Shown piece by piece: positions 47,706 through 62,400 of a DNA stretch of 64,000 bases. The notes under the pieces are model-generated. The model worked only from the letters and a program-made list of their open reading frames with translations, searched no databases and was not told where the DNA came from. Location: the NCBI GenBank assembly GCA_051362555.1, contig CM120641.1, positions 21,266,001 to 21,330,000 of the forward strand. Reading direction: 5' to 3'. The translations under genes were made by a program, and so were the position numbers. This DNA is from Lingula anatina. Lineage: Eukaryota; Animalia; Brachiopoda. Within the stretch, counting starts at the first letter, position 1; the number at the start of each line of letters is the position of its first letter.

Positions 47706-50700
47706 ATGACGCTAGAAAATACGCTCGTCAAGGAGAGTAAAAATGAAGCCGAAGAACTGGAAAGTGTCTCAGAGAAACCGCTTGAAAATGATGTTCGAGA
47801 AAAAAGACCAAAGACACCTCCCCTTCCAAAAGGAACTCAAACTCTCGAGCATCAGGTCGCTGGCCACAGGCATGGAAAGAGTAAAACAAAATTAGGTATT
47901 TGAGTGATATCTGCGATAAAAATTTGTTAAGTTATTCGGCTGTGGTATCACAGAATATTACTCGGAACAAACGTGAGACAAAAGGGGCTTTGGGACGTAT
48001 TTTTTGGAACTCAATCTGTCGACTTAAAAAACTGTTATACATGTTAAGTATCTGCGCCCTCTTCACTTCATTTTTCATTTCTGGATTATATACATATCAT
48101 ATATATTAAAAAAATGTGTTGCTTTCATTCATCAAGAGGAGATTGTGTCTGACAAATACCCAACATTTCTAGGAGCCACAGGAGTAAAGAGATTTAAGAC
48201 CGCCACCATTTCTAGTAGTTAAGACCACCACCCACTGTTTTAGATAATTTTATATCGGGGTAACATGGAGTTTTGAGATGCCCCCTCATCCATTTGACAT
48301 TAAGCATGCACATATTTGACTTCATTTCAGGTTTTCTTCAAAATACAGATGGTACTGTCCTGAAAGCCATCCAGTCTCCTCCAAGAGGAATGAGAGAGCT
48401 GCAGTTTTACCAGAATGTTTTTGATGAAAATCAAACAAACTCAGCTTTAATATCTCTGAGACAATTTATGCCTAAATACCTTGGAACCTACAGCTCTCCA
48501 GAATTACCAAATGGTAAGTTGATTGAAAATTATCGATTCTATTAAATGAATAAATTTAATTCTTAAACATAATAACATAGCATGCATTGGCTGGTCACTA
48601 ATTGTGATTTCTGACAGAAATTTTATTGTTCACTTTGGTGTAAAATCTAAGTTTTAAAGTTGTAATATTTTGTAGCATTACTTTTGCTGGATAATGGTAG
48701 ATTTTTAGTCTTTATGATTTGGTTTTTGTAATTCATATTTACATTTCTACTAATGTTCAACATTATAGTTATAAATGAAGTGTTGTTTGTTACTATGCAT
48801 AAATTGTTTTTCAAGATCCAATACTAATTTCATAATGTCAGAATTACTTTATGAATAAGAAAGTTTGAGGCATTTTTCTCTAATTTCTTTAGTTATTGTT
48901 GAAGTGTGGTTTTGGGATATTCTTTGTTATTATTTTTCTGGGATTATGAGCATGTTTGTGTAAGAATGAATGTTTTCACCATCATACGGAAGAAAGGTTG
49001 TCACCATCACGTTTGATAAACATTAAATCTCCTATTTGATTAAGTCATTTTCATTACATGTATATATGGATAACATGTGAATGTATTTGGAAAGGTGCCC
49101 TTTCTGTAGTCACTGGAACAACTACACCTATGTGCCACTGCAGAGTTTTTGCCACATATTTAAGCTACAGAAATCACAAAATTATTCAGTCTGTTTTTGC
49201 ATATCACCTATTCTATAACACTTGGTCATAGATTCTAATTTTAAAAAAAAAAATTAATATGTTTTGTATTTATATATTCTGAAAATAATTTTGAGCACAT
49301 TTTTTAGATGGCTGGATTGTTTATTTGTCAGCTTTGTTGTCCGATAGTGATCACAATATCATTTTGTATCTTCTTCATAGTCACTTTCATCACAGTTGTG
49401 AAGTACTGTGGTCATGAGCATTTTGCTTATACATTCCAGCTTCTTGCATACTCCTTACCCACTCTACCAGATAAAGTGATAAGAGCATGCATTGAACTTT
49501 TGCATGTCTGTGCCTGTTGGTCATTATGTGGATTGATATTACATTATTTAGGGGTTTGCATATCAAAATAAACACAGTTTGAAGAATTTGCTCACATCAT
49601 CACTTGTGCAAAATGGGTATGCCAGTTTTGTATACCAAAAAGTGCCCAAAGTATGAGGGTCTTGATGTCACAATTAAGCCAGCTATGCTGGGTAGAGGAG
49701 AATTGCCCCCAGTACCTGAAACTGAAAGGGGGTATCAAACTGAAAGGTTCCCAAAATGTTATACCGCATTTCAGTGATGTACCTCGTGATGGAAAAGGTC
49801 ACTCAGCCTTTTGCAGAGCCCTGTGTGTGCGACCTAAAAATGGGAGCCAGAACTCATGACCCTGAAGCAACACCAGCCAAAATTGCCCGTGAAAAGGCAA
49901 AATATCCGTTCTTAGAAAACGTTGGCTTTCAATTCCAAGGCTATAGTGTAAGTACAAACTGGCTGCCATTTGCTTTTTTTTTCTAGTAGAGTGTATGGTT
50001 TGCTCACTGTTGTTGTATGTAGTGAACTTTTGCTGAGGTGCACACAGACTTGTTCTTAGACCCAGATCAATGTAGGTCTACATTACACCACCAGGCAAAC
50101 AATTGAGTAAACCAGTTATTTGGCAGTTTAAACCATCGGGTATCCGACAAGTCACTGGTCGATTTCATTTGGTTGTTTGGTGATGGAATTGGGACCTGAA
50201 GTTGTTGCCTGTCATTGTGTTGAAACTCATATCAAGATATGGTTTGGATGTTGTATTGCACAAATCTATGCCACCTAGCTATTACAGATGGTAAGCTGTA
50301 AAAAGCATTGGCCATAGAAAGTTTTTGTTTGACTTGATGTTGATGTTGAACTTTTTTCTTTGCCTCTTTCAAAATGCCTTCTCTTATTTAAAAAAAAATA
50401 GATGTTTGTAACCTTGATGACATTTCAGAAGTTTTAATGCTTACTGCTGCCTTACTAGGTCGTCCCCTCTAACAGCTTGTTTCTACTTCCTGGGAAAGGG
50501 GATTAACACTGGCTGTTTCTCTTCCAGTCTTATACCTGAGAATGGATGATATATGTAACACATTCTCACAGCCTTGTATAGCCGATACAAAAATTGGCCC
50601 AGTAACATATGATCCTGATGCCAGCCAGGAGAAAAAGAAGCATGAACTTGCCAAAAATTCTTGTCTCCCCATTGTGGGGTTTCAGCTGTGTGGATTGAGA

Positions 50701-53700
50701 GTAAGTCCCCCCATACAGTCCAAGGGACAATAAAGAAGACCTTTATCATCTTAACTCTCTCATTTGAGCAGATGCCACAAACAGGTTTAAAGCCTATATA
50801 TATATAAATTAAAGTGTGTGAGAAGAAATGTAAAAACAAAGTTCATCCAAATTTTGCAGGTTCTGAATAAAATATCTACTGTTTGACTGGAAGCAAAGAT
50901 AGCACTAGGACATGTGATATTTGATGAAAAAGATGCTTGTTTATACGGCTTTCAGTTTCACTTAAGGCATCCCTTGGCTTGAAACGTAATGTGGTTGTGG
51001 GCAGCTATCCTATCTTTAAATCTGCTGCATATTGTACTTCCCTGCATTAACCTTAACCATTGTTATTGTATTGCTTAATTTTGAACATTTACAAAGAAAG
51101 ATAGCAGCAGCAAAATGTTTTTAACAGTGTCTTGATATAATAGAAAAAAATCGATCAGTTTTCAGTGTTTCCACATATACTTCATTCAAAGTTAAACACT
51201 GTGGGTGCAGCACACAAGACCCAAGGGGAAGGGGTATAGGGAGACATGGGGGGGATGGGGGGGGGGGGGGGTCAATATTTGTACTCTTAGATGTGAGAAC
51301 CACCTCCTGTATCCCATTATGAATGGAATTGTTTTTTTTTTCCCTCTGTACCAATAGATTTGTCCTAATCAGTGTTTTTATTACAGGGAATTTTGAGATG
51401 CATGGTTTTGTTAGAATTTCCATTAGCAATGATATCATAGTAGTTTGTGACCGTATAATCCATTGTAACATGGTACCTTGCTCAGCATTTGTTATCTGAT
51501 ACATTCAGTGGTGACATCTTTTTAAGGTTCTCTTCGAACTTTTTGTATCATCTTGCACAAATCAACTAAAAACTGTTAATGCTTCTTTTTGCCACATACA
51601 CTTTTATTATTTATAGTGTGCACAAATTTGGGCACTTAAACTTTAATGCATAAATGATATTGAGAAAGATAATAAAGGAGTTGCATAGACTGAGTAAACC
51701 CAAAATATCTTAGGCAATAAGTTAATTTGTTCATTCCATAAATGTGATTGAAATAATAAAAGCAAAGCCACACTAAGCAAATCTTATTGCTTTGTATAGT
51801 TTGTACCATTGGTCTACTGTTGACCTCTAATTTCGTCTGTGTGTTGTTGAATGATTTTGACAGCGGATTTTATTTTTGTTTTTAGGTTTATGATCAAGTT
51901 AAAAAGAAGTATGACATATATGACAAGAAGTTTGGCAGATCTTTAACAGAAGTGGAGGTTCTAACCAAAGGTGAGAGTCAAACTTGGATTTATGTACTGA
52001 CAGTCAATGAAAACGCATCAGAAAACTTTCTTGTACTTTTTTACCAAGAATCGATTCCAACCATGTAAAGGAGTACAAATGCACTTGTTTGGTCATAAGA
52101 GAGTGGGCTGACCACTCAGATGTTTAAAATTTCCGCTTCAGTGATTTTGTGATCAGCTGTTACAAAATCGTGTGTTATCCTGTCTCGTGATTGGTGTGAA
52201 TTAATCAGGTTCAATATATGGTGATTAATTAAGCCTTTTTAAGCTAGTCACCAAATGCAGTATGACACATGACAAAAAACTTCAGTTATGCCACGTCTGA
52301 CACTGGAAGAGCGACTGCGGGCCCTGGGGATGTTGGAGGCTGGGTGGAACCAAAGAGATTTGATCATGTGACCTTGCATTTTAATGATCTTTTCTGACCT
52401 TTATTTCACCTTGTGTGACTGAATAATGGGTGATATTTCACATGAAAACTGTTATTTTCTTAATGTGCTGAAGGAACTTAAAATATTATTTGATAAATAA
52501 ATGATGCATTTTCATTGACTGTCAGTATATGTACAAAAAGTAAGATGACAAATACCCTCTCTTCAGAGGATTAGTTATCTGGCCTACCTAACTACCAGAT
52601 GTGGCACTGAAAGATCCAGAATTTACCATAGATTGGATCAGGTTACCGGTTTACAAGGTGTGTATCAGTACACGCTTGGAAGTGTCAGACACGGAACGAG
52701 CACCAGGCAAGAGGGTGGCACATCTGACACTTCGAAGAACGTAATGATACACACCTTGAAAAACGATAGAGTGATGCGATCAACGGTAAACTCTGGATCC
52801 TTCTGTGCTGCGTCTGGTAGTTGGGTAGGCCTGGTTATGTTGTTACCACTCAAACTTTTGAGGAACAATCCACATACAATGCATGTGAAAAAATTCCTGG
52901 AAATTATACAGGTTTATTATTCATCAAAGCATACGGTATGCAAAACTATATGTATGCCAGTTTTCTATTGTAAATGTTGAAATTTTACTGTCAAGTATGA
53001 AATTTATCAGTCTCCATCTCCATTGCAAGAGTGACTCTTTTTTACAACTAAAAAAAAATGGTTCATGAATTGCCTATCTGTGAACACTTTGATTATGGAT
53101 GCCTTGTTAATGAGAGGAAAGTTTTGAAATTTCCAGGAAAACATTCTTTGCTGTAACACCCAGTGTGTGCCTTTAGCGAAGTGTTTGTATTGATGGTATT
53201 CCAGTCTATCATTACACTCACTGTCCATTTAAAATGTTGCTCATTGGGTCAAACATTTTTTTCCACAAAACCAGCCCGTCTTATTACTTTGTCTTGTCTA
53301 ACCAGGTTTTGCAGCTTTTTTTGACAATGGTTATGGAATCCGGGTGGATGCTGTGAAAGCCATGATCAAAAAGTTGGAAGAAATAGAGAAGTGGTTTATG
53401 TCACCTTCAGGCCTATGTTTCTATGCAAGTTCACTGTTGCTAGTATATGATGGAGAGAGAACCAGCACAGGCAAAACAGATGAGGAAGTATCTGATGGCA
53501 TTGACTATATCAAAGAAACAGACTGTGCTTGTACCCCTGAAGTGGCTGGCTGTGTAAATCAGTGTCAGCTTGCCATGGACTTAGAATGCCCAGTTGCTGT
53601 GAAAATGATCGATTTTGCTCATGTCTTTCCTGCAAGTGGTCTGGATGAAAATTATTTAACAGGACTGCGCAGTTTAATAGCATATCTCCACAGAGTACTG

Positions 53701-53709
53701 GAACTTTGA
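47706..53709 (+). CDS. IPMK: Inositol polyphosphate multikinase, 5 coding exons per isoform (exon 3 duplicated), 344 aa
   Basis: Exons 47706-47895, 48331-48513, [49775-49947 or 50528-50700], 51886-51970 and 53306-53709. Motifs HQVAGH, PPRGxRExxFY, PCxxDxKxG, YASSLLLVYD and MIDFAH are present. Confidence 0.93.
49775..49947 (+). CDS. IPMK: IPMK alternative exon 3a (mutually exclusive)
   Basis: 173 nt, TTTCAG acceptor and GTAAGT donor, phase 1 to 0. Encodes VMYLVMEKVTQPFAEPCVCDLKMGARTHDPEATPAKIAREKAKYPFLENVGFQFQGYS. Confidence 0.88.
50528..50700 (+). CDS. IPMK: IPMK alternative exon 3b (mutually exclusive)
   Basis: 173 nt, CTTCCAG acceptor and GTAAGT donor, phase 1 to 0. Encodes VLYLRMDDICNTFSQPCIADTKIGPVTYDPDASQEKKKHELAKNSCLPIVGFQLCGLR. 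Confidence 0.88.
51997..52525 (+). mobile_element. Internally deleted Tc1/mariner element in IPMK intron 4
   Basis: 24-bp TIRs with 1 mismatch (CTGACAGTCAATGAAAACGCATCA), TA on both flanks, and a residual transposase start MPRLTLEERLRALGMLEAGWNQRD at 52288-52371 that resembles a Tc1-type N-terminal HTH. Confidence 0.85.
52576..52837. mobile_element. Long palindromic MITE-like element in IPMK intron 4
   Basis: Outer arms GGCCTACCTAACTACCAGA...TTTACC / GGTAAA...TCTGGTAGTTGGGTAGGCC and inner arms CAAGGTGTGTATCA...GAAGTGTCAGA / TCTGACACTTC...TGATACACACCTTG. Confidence 0.75.
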
Positions 53710-55065
53710 CAAATGTTGTCAACTAGCTATAACACTTATTTGTCTCATCTTATTATAAAGTCAGTACTGCCACGAGCTTTAAGCTATATCTTAATTTTCC
53801 AGATTTTTTTCTAGTAGAAAGATTGATTACATGGAATGCTTTATGATAACTTTTATATTGTCAGTTTATCCCCAAGTCGGGTCCCAAGTGCAAGTAACTG
53901 ATATTTTAACAGTGTTGAAGTTTTAATCAATATCACTGTAATAAACATTTTTTTAAAATGTTTTTTTTTTTTGTTCTTTTTTCTTTTTGTAAAGCATGAT
54001 GGGGTGGATTTGCTATATTTTCTTAACAAGGAAAGGAAAGGTGCATTTGGAAGCTATATGACAGAATAAATAGTTTATTTCTCCTTAAACAGCATACAGT
54101 GTACTTATTACTAATTCAGAACTTACTATTGCTACATAACTATACTTCTGAACAAAATGCCCTGCAACTAGCATTCTGACTAAACCTTTAAAAAGTGGGA
54201 ACCAACATTTTGTCTTCTTGTCTCTTTCTAAACAATGGCATGGTATAAGCTCTGTTAAAATGACAATATTATCACTTGGAAAGAAAAGAAATGCAATTTA
54301 AGGTAGGATGAAAAAGAGATGGACAATGAGATATCAATGACTTCTTGAAAATTGACAAACACACCTATAAATGTCTATTTTGCATGTTTATCTAGTCCAT
54401 CCTTATTGGAATGAAAATATTACATAATTACATATTTAATAGTGACAGGAATTGCACCTTTGTGTTAACTTGGAATGAATAATTATCTTTGTGCAAAACT
54501 GATTACTAAAGAAATCAGCATTTTTTCACAGCAATGCATGATTAAGTATGAGAGTTAATAAATATGAATCAGTAACCATTGCCTAACAAAGTGCATAGTT
54601 CAAGACCATAAAAAAGCTCTCCATAAAAAGATACATTTGAATGTAGATCCGGGAATAGTGAAAATAATTGCCCCGACAGTTCCCATTTCCTTTATCTGGG
54701 AAAGACAGACGGTTCTGACTTAGTTTTTAGTGACATGACAAAACTGCCAATTTCACCCATCTCTCAACATTCTGCAAGATGTAACAAAGTGGCTACAATG
54801 TATATCCAATATACATGAATATCATGCACTAAAATGCATGAAAGCAAGATTCTATGTGCCTTTTTTTCAATAAATGCACAGAAAATGTGTTTTACTTAAG
54901 ATGCGAGATGCTTTTGGTAAGCATGATGTAACAAAAATTGTGGTCTCCATAACGAAGGATTGTGACCATCATTTAATGTCTCTAGCCCCCCCCCCCCCCC
55001 CCCCCCCCCCCTCCCCCCATCCCCTGCCAACAATTTCATCCTCAAGCTGGATCAAAACTATTACA

Positions 55066-56671
55066 TCAGTAGTCTGGAGCTGGTGTCAGAAGAGTCTTGA
55101 TGAAGTCTGCATACTTAACTTGTCCATTTGGTTGGATCTTTGCCTCCCTGAATAATGCATCAACTGAAAATAAAAGTATTTGTGTAATGATCAAGAGTAT
55201 GAAATGAGAATCTGTAAATCACTACTTCAAATAAAACATTAGTTTTCATTTCAGTATTAACTTTGATAAATTGTGAAGGAACCAAATATGTTTTGACCGA
55301 TGGGAAGCATAGCAAAAGCAGAAGTTAAAATATATTCGTGTACAAGGATGCACAGTAACCACAACTCATACAAGAAACTAAAATAACATAATAAGTAAAC
55401 AAATTATTGTCAGTAGAAAAACACAACACATTTTCACCTTCTCTTTTGTTCAGTTTTTCCCCAAATTGTGTCAGAATATTCTTGACCTCCGATGCATTCA
55501 CGTATCCTCGTCGTTGAATATCATGTGACTGGAACGCTGCCACAAGTTCCTCCTGACACTTCTCATTCTGGGAATGTTCATGCATGATATCCAGGAAAGT
55601 GGCAAAATCAATCTTGCCCTCTGGAATTCAAAACAGGTAAGGAATAGAATAAATCTGAAGATAATAGTACATAACAGAGCTGATGAAATTCTTTTCAGAA
55701 TGAATCTTATTTTAGAGCGCTGAATGCTACAGTATTTATTCATGTTAATGAAGGTTTAAAACTGGATTGATTTTGGATCGTATCACTGAGTATTGATACT
55801 AGCAAAATTCTTAAGTAGTTTAATGTGGTTCTCAGAATCAGATCCCTTATCTATGCACAAAGCGATCACTTACTTTCTGACATGTAAATCATTAAATTAA
55901 ATTAATAATATGAAATTATTAATAGTTGAAAAGTTTTCATTCATGATAGTTTTACAGTATTTGAAATACCTGTTGACTGTTTCATCTGTTCACACTGACA
56001 GACTTGGTCACAATTGCTATCATATGTATCATAAATGATAACTTTTCAACTATCAAAAACTATTTTCACTTTTGAAATTATTAAGTCTAAAATATTATAC
56101 TAACCTTTCTGGTATTTTTTGTAATACGTTTGCAACTCTACAATGGTTGGGCTATAGCCTAATGATCTCATAATGATCTTTAACTCCTCTACATTGACAA
56201 TATGCCTTTGTCTTGCATAGAAGGAAAAACATTCCTTGAACTCTGAAAGAGATTAATATAACTTATAAGTAATCACAAGTTGTGAGTATTTTATTTTAAA
56301 ATAATAATTCATAAAATTTTAATTATGCCATTCAGACTTAAATGATTCAGTGATTGAAACAGTACATGAGATTTAGTCAAGAAATGTATCTTAACTGTTT
56401 AATTAGAAAAGAGTCTGCTTGGTTGGGAATTTAGGGCGTGTCCAACTTCGGCAGTGTACTGAATCAGTAACTCATCAGAATAAAATACTTATATCTCAAC
56501 GGGAAAACTATGCAATAAAATAACCAGTGAACCTGGTATTTGCACTTACCATCTATGTCACTCTTGCTAAAGAATCGGGCCTGAAAAGATAAAGAAATAT
56601 TTTAAGAGTTTTGATGCTGTTGCAGAGTTATAAAGTGAAAAATTAGAAATAAATGAAACGGTACTCACCAT
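55066..56671 (-). CDS. CALML4: Calmodulin-like protein 4, 5 coding exons, 150 aa
   Basis: Exons (-) 56671-56669 (ATG only, typical of calmodulin-family genes), 56580-56550, 56242-56105, 55620-55438 and 55163-55066. The protein MARFFSKSDIDEFKECFSFY...MRSLGYSPT...IDFATFLDIMH...GEKLNKREVDALFREAKIQPNGQVKY...PAPDY has degenerate EF-hands and CALML4-type termini. Confidence 0.9.
55922..56053. repeat. Short inverted-repeat element in CALML4 intron 3
   Basis: 27-bp arms with 2 mismatches (ATAGTTGAAAAGTTTTCATTCATGATA). Confidence 0.65.
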
Positions 56672-59450
56672 CTTGAATGATCCCGCACTTAATTATGTTT
56701 TGTAAATGTTTCTTATTTCAAATAAAATGTATTAAATGGTGTTATAAAAATAAAAAAATATTTGATGTATAGAAAAGATGTGTCAGTTAAAATCCCATTC
56801 ATTCAATTGAGTATTTGATGGAAAGAATTCAGGGTGACTTGAACGACCTTCACCTTTGAATTTATTCTGCATCAGTAGCTAACGCATTGGTTATTTACAG
56901 GAGTATTTACAAGATGAATAATAGTTTGAAGAAGATGTGAAAGTTAAACAATTTGATTCAGTACGAGAGGGTGCATCCATGTAAATGGTGAGCAAAGAAT
57001 TGAAATATTTTGAGATATCTATCTTACCATTCTATTTCTAACGTAAACGAATGTTTTCATTCAATTTCAAGTTGGCCATACCTACATGTAAGTCATGCCC
57101 TTCTGGGGACATCTGTTGCAATTTCCTACGTCTTGAGGGTGGTGGAAAGGAGCTATTTGATTTTAAAGTTTATGTGTTTTGTTCTTATCTGTGGCCATTT
57201 ATCATTGTTTCCAGATGGCCATACCTGAGTGAAGCCATTTATCCATTATGCTAGCTACTCCTACCTTGTGTAGCTGATACCATTCCCACTAGTTGTATGA
57301 TGTAATACTTATTTAGTTATGTAAGACCGAATTATGGCCATATAGATTAACTTCTTGATTTAGTAAATTTTCAATTATTTTCTCAATGATATTTTACAGG
57401 TGGGCCAATTTAGTACAGTATCATTAGGGATGTACATATGTATGTACCCCCATTACACCAATTGGGGGGGGGGGGGGGAGTCTTTGGAAAAATGATGTTA
57501 AATAGGTCAAAACATTATCTGTCTGTTTACAAGAAAGTTTTATAATTCACAAATGTATTCTTACAAAGTTGTTAGTTTTTTGTAATTGAAAGTTGTGCTC
57601 ATGATCAGTAAAGAATGTTACTTTTACAAAAGATGATTTCTTTTCTTCTTAAATCAAATGGTGAATGTGCCAGGTGCATGTCAAAAGAAGTCAAAATTAA
57701 GCGTAGGAATAAAATTCAAGACAATTTATGAACATTATATTCCAAAATTATTGAGATGCAAATTACTTTTTTAAAGAATGCAATTTTTGAAGTGTATCAA
57801 AATTGATACGAATGTACAATGGATATATGTGTAGCAGTTAGTATTTAACCAGAAAAATTTAATTACTAAAAAAAAAAAGAATCTATCCTTTTCTTGTCTA
57901 CTCTCAGTGAACACACAGGATTTCACCTGCATCAAGATATAACTTGAGCAGCTGCAGTCTATGATTTACATAAAATATAAGCTGAATATTAATAAAATTA
58001 CCAAAAATTATTATAATCTGTTTGAAATCTTTCTTATCATATTTATTTTTCTTTAAAACCAACCATGTTGGTTACCAATCGTCAGATATTTCCAGTTTTA
58101 TTCGCGCTGTTTTATCTTATATCAACATTATCTAATCAAATAGATAACATTCCAAAATTGTTAGGTGTTGAAAGAAATAGGTTCTATTGACTTTTGCATT
58201 TTAAAAACACATGTGTTTTATACTAACAGACAAAAATGAGATAAACTTGGAATTTCTTCAGGTGTTACCCTCTTATCTTTTTTCATTTATAAGAATACAT
58301 TTAGCTGTATATTTTTCAGAGATGTTAGTCCTAAATATCAAAGAATAACAAAGCGGGCTAATGTTGACATTTGAAACTTATCTTCATTTCAAAATGATAC
58401 TGTAGCCTCATATGGTTTCAAGATAATTAAGTATAAGATGTCAAAACCAAGTAATCATACTCACCCCTCCTTTACGGTCTTGTGAACGTGATGAGAGATT
58501 CATTTTTATACCTACATATGTGTAGGAATTGCTGGGACACAAACACACACACACACCCCTCTGATATAGCTGCCCTAATATGCAGTGTATCTATGCCTGG
58601 TATGCAGGATGGATGTACCTCACCAAGTGTAGATAAACCACAGGGCTGACATAGTAAACTTTGAACTCTGTACAGTCATTTGAATGAGATTAATGCCCCC
58701 TATTTTGTTTATGCCCCTCTGGTCACCCTTATTGTTTTATGGGTAGCATCTACTGAAGAGGCCAAGTCTAAGTTATGCACAATGTGTAAAGTTTGTGAGT
58801 TTTGCTCATGCCTATGCTAATGGTATAGACAAATCCATAGTAACTAGTTTTGTTGGTGTCCTGGTTTATAACTTGTGTATGACACTGTGGAATAGATAAG
58901 AGTGGGTTATACATGTGAGGACAAGTTAAAAGGTATAAATCCAGTTTAAAATTTTTATAGCATTTTGATAGTACAGATATGGTAAAAGAAGAAATCTTAT
59001 CAAGTAGTTAAACTATAAAAAAAGAATTGCTTTAGATGATAAGATTTGTTTGTTCATAAAATGGCTTCAAATTGTACTAACAGCGTGGGCACTGGGGGTA
59101 CTTGTGGTTTAACCAACCCATTATGTTTTTTAAGAAATCCATCTCATAGGTCGTCATGCTTTAAAATATACTTTATGAAAATTTGAACCTTCAAAAGGTG
59201 GTCATGCTTTAAGCTGCTCTTTTTAAAAATCTGAAAAGCGGGTAATATTTGGTTGATATGATCAACTGTGTTGCTTCAAATCTACATGTTGCAGGCAATC
59301 TAATTTAAGTGCTGAAATTTTCAGAAAAAGTCCATTTTTCCTGATTTATACCGAAAAAGCACTTTGTCCAAGAACAATGATTTATTTATTCATCTTTCTT
59401 TCAGATATGAATTCCAGTGTTCAATACGGGGTGTGATATGTGAAGCCACC

Positions 59451-62400
59451 ATGGCTTCTGTTAAGGACAACACACCTGGCCTGGGTAAGACTGATCTGAA
59501 ACTGGTCACTCCAGCAGTGACCAGGGGGGGCATCACACACATAGATGATGTGGGTCATGGAAAAGTGCATGATGAGGAGCATCATGAGGATGAATTCAAA
59601 ATTAGCCAAAAAGTAAGTGTTTTAGGTACAAATTGACTACTGGTGAGATAAAAGATTGTTAGAAATTTCCTTTTACCAATGTATGAAAATGTGATACTCT
59701 GACCACTATATTTGCCAGGCTTGACAGCCATTTGCTGTTATCAACAATATAATGATCAGAAGAACATTAATGATTAGTCAGTTGAGTTGCAAGCACAAAA
59801 TCTAAACTTGTTCATAAAGTGTCTTTATTGTACTTGGTATGCATTATTCATAACCTTCAGTTGTTTATCTGTTCTAATGGCACAATTTTTCAGGTGTCAA
59901 ATAAGTATAAAATTTTCACCTCCTTGACTGCGGGTGCTGTTGCTGGTGCTGTTGCAAAGACAACCATAGCCCCTTTGGACAGGACAAAAATAAACTTTCA
60001 AAGTTAGTTGCTTTGTGATATTGTTTTGCCTTCAAAGAATCTATAACCTCTCTCTGTCTGTCTGTCTGTGTCTGTATATAATTATCAAGTTCTCCAAATT
60101 AGTCAATCTACACAAAAAAATCTGACAAAAAATGATGCCAGAAATGTAGAGTAACAGTGTAGATTTTAATCATCGGTATAAATTTTTACTTCCAGTCTCA
60201 CAGACTCCATATTCCTACAAAGGAGCTTTCTTATTTATAAAGAATACTGTGAAGAATGAGGGGTTCTTCACGCTGTGGCGGGGTAATTCTGCAACCATGG
60301 CCAGGATTATCCCCTATGCTGCAATACAGTATGCTGCCCATGAACAGTGGAAACGATTGCTCAATCCAGAAAACAATAGGTAATGATGATCCAGTAAGGC
60401 AGAAAAGTATCAATCTAAACTTTGTGGTTATTTAAACTTCAAAAGCAAGAACTGTATAAAATTAAGACTTCAACTAATTTAACTCCTCACTTATTCTGAT
60501 GTATTACTTTTTCATGATTTATCACTTTTAGTTATTCATAAAAATGTGATTCACATAAACTCGATTTTCACTTATAAATCAATACACCTTAAGTGTTGCT
60601 TACACAGCATTTTTTCTGAAATTTATTTACTCATTTTCATTGTTTTTAATGAGTAATTACAATATCTTTGTTGAAAAACGTTTACCTTTTTGTTATACAC
60701 CTTTGAAATACAAATTTTAGATTATTGCATAATGTTAAAAAAAGCAGTGGACTTGTTTTGTTGACCACATTAATGAAACTCTTAATACATGAATTAAATT
60801 TTTTTTTAGAAGCATGCCTAGAAGTCTTCCGCCTGGCAGGCGATTTGTAGCAGGCTCTTTAGCAGGGATGACTTCTGTGGCTGCGACATACCCTTTAGAC
60901 ATGGTCAGGGCTCGAATGGCTGTCACGCTCAAATGCAGGTAGAACTTAACATTTGTAGTTGTGACCTTGACTGAAAAAAATCCTGGAGTACTTTTGGGCA
61001 ACTGATAGTGATAAATGTGGGGAAATGCATGCTGTGTTTGTACATTGTTGATAAAATGACTTGGAAGTCATGGGCTTTCAGAAGTTATTTTGCTATAAAG
61101 GAACTGTAACATTTTGTATGAAAATATGTTTGGGTTTTCTATTAAGATGTGGATTTGGTTTGTAGATACACTTGATATCTCAGTTTTACATGTCTGATTA
61201 AAAATGATGCCAAATAGATAACATTCACATACAATTTTTAAATATTTTTAAATTGAAAACCAAAAGTCACAAGATTCATCATAAATGATAATTTATTTGT
61301 TTTTAAAACTCTCGGGTATAAATATCACATTACTTGTATTACCCGAGCACATTCTTATATTCTTTTGAAAATCACCTCTAGGTATAAAAGCCTGTGGGAA
61401 GTTTTCTTCAAAATTTACCGAGAAGAAGGTATCCTCACATTATACAGAGGTTTCATACCTTCCTTTCTGGGAGCAGTTCCTTACTTAGGCACAAGCTTCT
61501 TTACTTATGAAACATGCAAGAAATTACTCTACGGTAAGAAATGATGATCTTTTCCAGTGTTGCGCAAATCAGTTGCTTTTGCCTGTGTGATTCAAGTCCT
61601 TGTCATCTCTTCCACTCCCCTCACTCATGAACTAACTGTTCTGTTCCATTTGTTTCAAACATGCAAATCAAACAGCAAAAAAGTTTTGTTTCCCCCGTAC
61701 TTACCCCAGTTTGAGCTTCTCTCTTTTAATGTGCTGGCACAGTAGTACCTGAACAAAGTGCAATCTTCACCCCTGTCCAGGTGCAGTTACTCAGCACACA
61801 AGATTTTCCTTGATATATGAACTGTGGCAGTTTGTCTGAACATTTGCCAGTTTAGGCTGGCTAGTTTGTCACGTTTGTCCCACCATATAAAAAAATTGAC
61901 TCTGAAAATTGCAGCAACAGAACTCGAGTTTCAATAGGAAACCAAGCACCCCCTGCATACTTTTCAAAATTCAGTGCCAGGCAATGCAGCTGATTTGCTT
62001 TAATTTTGGTAAAGTCTTTTCATCAGTACAGCCCTTCATTTCAGGTATCACAGTCTTTTTGAGGTGATTGTGAAAATTTACCAGGAAGAAGGAATCCGAA
62101 CTCTTTACAGAGGGTTTACGCCTACTGTACTAGGCTCAATTCCTTACTCAGGAACAAGTTTCTTTACATATGAAACAATGAAGAAAAATTATTTTGGTAA
62201 GAGTACCAGCCTGCGGCTTTGAGCTTGATGTACAAATAACATGTGATTGTAGTCCTTTACACAGGCATGAGATTGATATTTTTGTCTGAAAAATTGGAAA
62301 CAAGTTGGCAACGTAACTGCCCAAAAAGTTAAGTGGAAACATTAGTAAATTTGGAAAAATCTCATGTCTGCTCAAGAAACCTCACTGCAGTGGAAAATTT

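Follow-up and report, generated by a model that had tools for sequence, protein, structure and literature searches.

Swapping duplicated exons within an enzyme core is a known, if uncommon, way to tune enzymes, as exemplified by KHK, PKM and MAPK14. The isoforms of KHK and PKM differ in affinity or regulation. In these three genes and in ACSL6, homologous exons lie side by side within the part that encodes the catalytic core (PMC8373072, supplement), as they do in the IPMK gene of the brachiopod Lingula anatina described here. The PKM exons (167 nt), like the Lingula exons (173 nt), have lengths that are not a multiple of three. However, the enzyme fold is different, and the IPMK segment carries the hinge, the DxK motif and the substrate helix together. 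Moreover, both exons of the KHK, PKM, MAPK14 and ACSL6 pairs have RNA and proteomic support, whereas only one of the two Lingula exons is observed as the sole exon. In validated human pairs, one default exon usually dominates and frameshifting reads that join the two exons are common (PMC5740500, accessible portion).

We found no case in the inositol phosphate kinase superfamily, and exon-pair swaps in enzyme cores are as such already known. IPMK, IP6K and ITPK are absent from a table of human tandem-duplicated exons (PMC8373072, one supplementary file), as are IPMK, IP6K, ITPKA and ITPKB from a survey of human mutually exclusive exons (PMC5740500, ten supplementary files). IPMK is also absent from the main text of PMC9741552, and no word starting with ‘splic’ occurs in the accessible portion of an IPMK review (PMC12467090). 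Among the papers listed for Lingula anatina, titles and the opening lines of abstracts reveal none on an IPMK exon pair. The initial annotation of this DNA knew of no such report for IPMK, and the searchable literature likewise yielded none; the IPMK passages of the nearest paper concern UFD1. A case could be held by subscription journals, by exon catalogues of Drosophila and other invertebrates, or by bioRxiv supplements.

Anatomy of the gene and of its two core exons

The gene lies within the window, by which we mean the whole 64-kb stretch of DNA that was analyzed. Its features are given below together with the supporting reads from four RNA sequencing runs (coded X1, X4, X7 and X8), and residues follow human numbering.

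47706..47895, + strand: IPMK coding exon 1 (E1), with the ATG at 47706; matches residues 1-64 of protein P0001; E1>E2 joint in three of the four runs
48331..48513, + strand: constitutive IPMK exon 2 (E2), with the QSPPR proline loop and a phase-1 donor; E2>a reads 60, 2, 8 and 15 in X1, X4, X7 and X8
49775..49947, + strand: core exon a, the default; equivalent to human exon 4, residues 125-182; present in XP_013386572.1; spliced on both sides; carries K132, H152, R163 and S182
49948..50527, + strand: GT-AG intron of 580 nt between a and b; can be spliced; coverage above background in X7
50528..50700, + strand: core exon b, the minor form; absent from the public protein; acceptor used in a>b reads; keeps D132, Y152 and R182 and has T145, H163 and N168-S169
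50729..50734, + strand: AATAAA, a candidate intronic polyadenylation signal 28 nt past the exon b donor; another copy at 50866
51886..51970, + strand: constitutive IPMK exon 4 (E4); a>E4 reads 21, 6, 6 and 2 in X1, X4, X7 and X8
53306..53709, + strand: last IPMK coding exon (E5), with SSLL and IDF motifs and the stop; E4>E5 joint in all four runs

As the initial annotation had described, with exact coordinates, exons a and b are each 173 nt long, have canonical splice sites and no stop codon, share their phases (1 in, 0 out) and encode 24 identical residues out of 58 (23 of the 57 whole codons plus the junction Val). Their boundaries are tttcag/TG...AGT/gtaagt for a and ttccag/TC...AGA/gtaagt for b. 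The two are thus adjacent exons of like length, phase and sequence, which is what Hatje et al. (2017; PMC5740500, accessible portion) look for in a mutually exclusive pair. The public annotation of the gene holds one protein, which is the a form and lacks b; the protein that we predict with exon a differs by one residue from this IPMK entry (XP_013386572.1).

Together with the four flanking exons, the a-only and b-only messages each encode 344 amino acids. If both exons are included, the reading frame closes after 185 amino acids, at the fourth b codon, and this stop precedes the last junction by 246 nt. Skipping of both leads to a stop at 126 amino acids, 77 nt upstream of that junction.

The analysis covered a single assembly, and b could in principle be an assembly artefact, such as a haplotype that was not collapsed, or belong to a different, paralogous gene. 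This explanation is exceedingly improbable, because a and b match at only 93 of 173 bases (54%) with third positions saturated, far beyond what alleles show, and because RNA joins a to b and covers the intron between them. Moreover, neither another IPMK piece nor a third copy of the core exon was found within the 64-kb window. The duplicated-exon feature in Lingula anatina IPMK is real and old.

Both exons belong to the IPK domain (Pfam PF03770), as evident by scores of 45.9 bits for a and 46.6 bits for b against a cut-off of 22.2, which P0001 also passes, and by the PxxxDxKxG motif that each contains. Human IPMK (PDB 5w2g and 6e7f) is the best solved-structure match of both, with near-equal scores over the same segment (44.8 bits for a and 43.8 bits for b), and E values are about 1e-10 to human IPMK versus 0.001 or worse to IP6K and IP3K. 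K160 and K167 of the short inositol-binding (IP) helix are present in both exons and assign them to IPMK rather than to IP6K or IP3K. Outside the pair, the proline loop reads QSPPR in Lingula exon 2 and QPPPR in human IPMK (PMC12467090, accessible portion). Both exons keep P140, C141, D144, K146, G148, A156, K160, E164, K167, G175, F176 and G180.

According to the same portion of that review, human IPMK exon 4 spans residues 125-182. Its ligand-near residues are two in the hinge that make contact through the backbone, E131 and V133, together with D144, K146, K160, Q163, Q164 and K167. In Table 1 of the review, p53, SRF, AMPK and SMARCB1 are given as binding partners of this segment. This account agrees with the earlier assignment of the hinge, the DxK motif and the IP helices to the duplicated segment. 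The Lingula exons share the limits of human exon 4, its length (58 codons) and its catalytic and inositol-binding positions, and have R (a) or H (b) at human Q163 and E at Q164. Because the limits coincide, we conclude that an ancient exon was duplicated whole. The gene product is predicted to have the inositol phosphate 3-/6-kinase and PIP2 3-kinase activities of IPMK.

Two stretches of IPMK intron 4 (51995-52530 and 52795-52840) are covered by many RNA reads of either orientation, which have loose ends and carry fixed differences. These stretches are likely repeats that are transcribed elsewhere. On the opposite strand, a gene at about 54100-56700 in the window points towards IPMK, and its transcript covers 54100-54600, near or overlapping the IPMK 3′ end; from its translation we take this gene to be calmodulin-like.

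Constraint on exon b and its relatives elsewhere

Exons a and b are identical at 34, 40 and 18 of 57 first, second and third codon positions, respectively, and differ at proportions of 0.74 of synonymous sites (pS, saturated) and 0.39 of nonsynonymous sites (pN), with one of ten fourfold sites identical. Exon b nevertheless carries no stop, indel or splice-site damage. Both donors read GTAAGT, and the pyrimidine tract of b (13 of 17) is no weaker than that of a (10 of 17). Given that synonymous sites are saturated while twelve core residues have been kept, b is not a long-dead copy.

A profile of homologues gives a similar picture. From 266 proteins we obtained 257 segments, with P0001, P0192 and P0229 set aside and six others left out for want of the motif or of full length, and 84 segments were retained at under 70% identity. 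Against this profile the scores are 119 for b and 104 for a, where the leave-one-out mean is 120 (sd 11.5, n=76). The comparison is biased towards b, as many of the homologues had been collected with b as the query (best 150 of 260 matches).

We also simulated neutral decay of exon b (3000 runs per level, no indels), counting as intact those copies that retained the frame, the splice dinucleotides and the twelve residues. The intact fraction falls from 48% at 0.02 changes per site to 16% at 0.05, 2.6% at 0.1 and 0.17% at 0.2, and none of 3000 copies survives at 0.3. As judged from its sequence, exon b has therefore probably been translated as kinase over almost its entire history, which requires direct joining of E2 to b.

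The simulations would permit b to have been a working alternative for long that has lately gone unused and is starting to decay, and its function may have been lost as recently as 0.02-0.05 changes per site ago. The odd residues of b cluster at 168-172, plus T145, as might be expected at the onset of decay, and no b-only junction is found among those listed. However, decay has left no stop, indel or splice damage and has not moved the profile score from the family mean, and similar departures (a small residue at 145, no P169) occur in P0122, a sequence that groups with b. We thus regard recent loss as improbable.

Although they bear the same species label, reads from X7 and X8 depart from the window at many fixed positions (eight listed in exon 1 alone), unlike those from X1 and X4. 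This suggests that X7 and X8 represent a divergent population or a cryptic species, which would be usable for estimating dN/dS of exon b. Among the four other-letter RNA rows shown for exon a, three are synonymous.

Trees were built on 57 columns, either with 86 rows, for which the bootstrap is unsettled, or with 36 rows chosen as nearest. Exon b groups with P0122, an exon-sized ORF on a contig of 495,568 nt, with support of 98/90 (86 rows) and 97/89 (36 rows), and exon a groups with P0195 (92/87 and 89/78). P0122 shares with b the exon limits, the small residue at 145 and the loss of P169; by rare-residue score it ties with P0126 (28.5 versus 28.8), and the data do not reject a topology that pairs a with b (p-AU 0.09). 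No partner exon was found on the P0122 contig among the 28 other matches compared. No tandem pair came to light in another organism. Of 11 metagenome loci none has one, but most are uninformative: several have no intron at this place, two (L006 and L008) are truncated within the exon, and the match of one (L011) comprises 13 residues. P0192, a protein of 529 amino acids with two IPK motifs and apparently two kinase domains in one chain, was rejected as an exon pair, being a distant two-domain protein.

The grouping of b with P0122 hints at a wider spread, as a lead only. It is rather unlikely that the pair represents an ancient switch common to the wider lineage of P0122, in which a single IPMK gene would exchange hinge, catalytic motif, substrate helix and partner-binding segment as one block, and a tissue-specific b enzyme would differ from a in its inositol phosphate or lipid product or in ATP sensing. 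If true, such a lineage-wide switch would amount to a natural one-exon experiment on inositol phosphate kinase specificity.

Exon use in RNA and the probable basis of exclusivity

Four of the nine raw-read runs available under the species label were searched for splice joints, sampling about 6% of the reads of X1 and X4 and about 25% of those of X7 and X8. Joints were listed from three reads upward, and the results below concern 15 of the 17 joints that qualified. Exon a serves as the default, as evident by 85 reads in total for the E2>a joint and 35 for the a>E4 joint, which bridges b. Four reads with four different starts, all from X1, join a to b and shift the frame, and these account for four of 25 spliced reads leaving a in X1 and four of 39 over the four runs.

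Neither E2>b nor b>E4 is found among the 15 joints listed for the four runs, given the limit of three reads, and no use of the b donor is seen in the RNA of these runs. In X1, the depth over b is at most about 5% of that over a, which the four a>b reads roughly account for; if zero to three E2>b reads are assumed to have escaped listing, they would make up no more than 5-12% (95% upper bound). About three reads’ worth of depth lies over b in X4, with neighboring bins empty, which is too few to judge.

Four junctions had been proposed for inspection, and these data bear out the two that involve exon a (48513>49775 and 49947>51886), whereas the two that would define a b-only message (48513>50528 and 50700>51886) are not among the 15 listed. 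The exons had also been called interchangeable, with only one of them usable at a time. They are indeed both intact and homologous, but their use is uneven, with a dominating in the deepest run. Likewise, exclusivity holds for the full-length protein but not for the spliceosome, which joins a to b.

By the criteria in the accessible portion of PMC5740500, reads that join the two exons of a pair are allowed only if they shift the frame, as the four a>b reads do. Since one bridging junction is missing, the pair counts by the same criteria as a candidate rather than as validated. The RNA pattern nonetheless fits what a real pair often looks like in few samples, because a default exon usually dominates in the pairs validated there. 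Searches of protein collections provide weak evidence against use of b: a word search of proteins of 101-2000 amino acids returned no match for exon b and P0001 only for exon a. Among the best 120 of 365 matches to P0001, mostly from vertebrates, no isoform pair differs in the core exon.

The same reads could be taken to mean that b mainly lowers IPMK output, either as a poison exon after a or through a poly(A) end, in which case a useful b-only kinase would be gone. The only listed joint that touches b is a>b, with the shares of reads given above. In addition, X7 covers the a-b intron and b at a depth of 5.8-10, versus 0.87 in the upstream intron, and falls to 0 after 50875 (bin 50876-51109), just past the AATAAA motifs at 50729 and 50866. 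The X7 pattern is possibly that of an IPMK transcript that retains the intron or is polyadenylated within it and encodes a truncated protein. However, the depth over the introns could instead be an effect of mappability, given that the X7 and X8 reads carry no strand information and diverge by several percent from the window, and AATAAA is common here, occurring four times in the 1185-nt intron after b and twice in the upstream intron. Translation of a poison or terminal exon would run in another frame and stop at the fourth codon, such that D144, K146, K160, E164, K167 and a donor at the homologous place would not be expected to persist. A role for b chiefly in lowering output therefore deserves some weight but is not very likely.

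We consider it fairly probable that a and b form a default and regulated mutually exclusive pair, in which the b-only form is a second kinase with differences in the ATP pocket and the short helix. The core exon of this gene was duplicated in tandem long ago, and a is the default copy in the RNA examined. In some tissue or developmental stage b is likely spliced in place of a, which would yield a second full-length kinase. The splice sites by themselves impose no exclusivity, as a and b can be joined, and the a+b product, which stops at codon 185, would likely be removed by nonsense-mediated decay. Alternatively, the a+b transcript may end at the nearby intronic poly(A) signal.

Two other means of enforcing exclusivity were considered and rejected. 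Steric exclusion, which operates when a branch point lies under 50 nt from the donor, does not suit an intron of 580 nt whose first branch-like motif is 381 nt away. Incompatibility of U2 and U12 sites is excluded by the fact that both donors read GTAAGT and that the a-b intron is spliced in RNA. A docker/selector arrangement, in which conserved intronic base pairings compete, may still contribute, although the best intron duplexes in the Lingula window alone (−27 to −32 kcal/mol) fall within the range of six shuffles each.

The accessible portion of PMC6071210 lists mechanisms of mutually exclusive splicing that include decay of a frameshifted double-inclusion product, and among these, decay of the a+b product would be the best fit. 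The locus would then resemble pairs of the FGFR2 IIIb/IIIc type, which likewise show an exon length not divisible by three, joining reads and a premature stop (in Lingula, 246 nt ahead of the final junction). An intronic poly(A) end is a possible alternative here that would set the locus apart from this type.

Possible differences between the two predicted kinases

The predicted a and b proteins differ only within a stretch of 58 residues and would form a clean pair for assigning the residues that set ATP handling, inhibitor sensitivity and product. The initial annotation proposed that the exons might switch the enzyme between 3- and 6-kinase activity or to PIP2 kinase activity. This proposal finds weak support, since D144, K146, K160, E164 and K167 do not change between the exons and the one substrate contact that differs is position 163, which is R in a (as in 29 of 84 homologues) and H in b (as in 5 of 84).

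The change E131D in the hinge is common, occurring in 12 of 82 homologues, and E131 and V133 act through their backbone only (PMC12467090, accessible portion). Rarer residues are found in both exons. Exon a carries K132 (0/82 homologues), S182 (0/84), H152 (2/84) and C143 (1/84), and exon b carries T145 (0/84), N168 (1/84), S169 (0/84), C170 (1/84) and P172 (1/84). Exon b thus differs in the short second inositol helix (IP helix).

In human IPMK structures, Asp132 and Arg182 line the ATP site: the former binds one ATP-site inhibitor through its carboxyl group, and the latter takes part in a water network around a different one (PMC12670395, accessible portion). Because K132 and S182 of the default exon both occupy ATP-pocket positions, it is exon a that carries a remodelled ATP pocket: two residues present in nearly all homologues are gone from the default exon, whereas the rare exon has kept them. 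Positions 132 and 182 appear to covary (Fisher p 0.003 over 82 rows; rank 14 of 1378 pairs), but this is unsupported once relatedness is counted, which leaves one independent pair. P0240, an exon-sized IPMK ORF, is like a in that it lacks D132 and R182 (P and T instead), yet the trees place it apart from a.

Judging from these residues, we would expect both kinases to make the same products and to differ in ATP handling, turnover, or inhibitor or partner binding more than by a switch between 3- and 6-kinase activity.

A further tandem exon arrangement lies downstream on the + strand, in a mitochondrial carrier gene (Pfam Mito_carr) that is presumably SLC25A42-like. Its exons at 61382-61533 and 62045-62196 are 152 nt each, have the same phases and AG/GTAAGA ends, and are identical at 34 of 50 residues and 23 of 50 third positions. 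The fly gene CG4241 has two spliced isoforms (PMC7504413, accessible portion). The carrier exons, at a distance of 11 kb from those of IPMK, look like another mutually exclusive pair.
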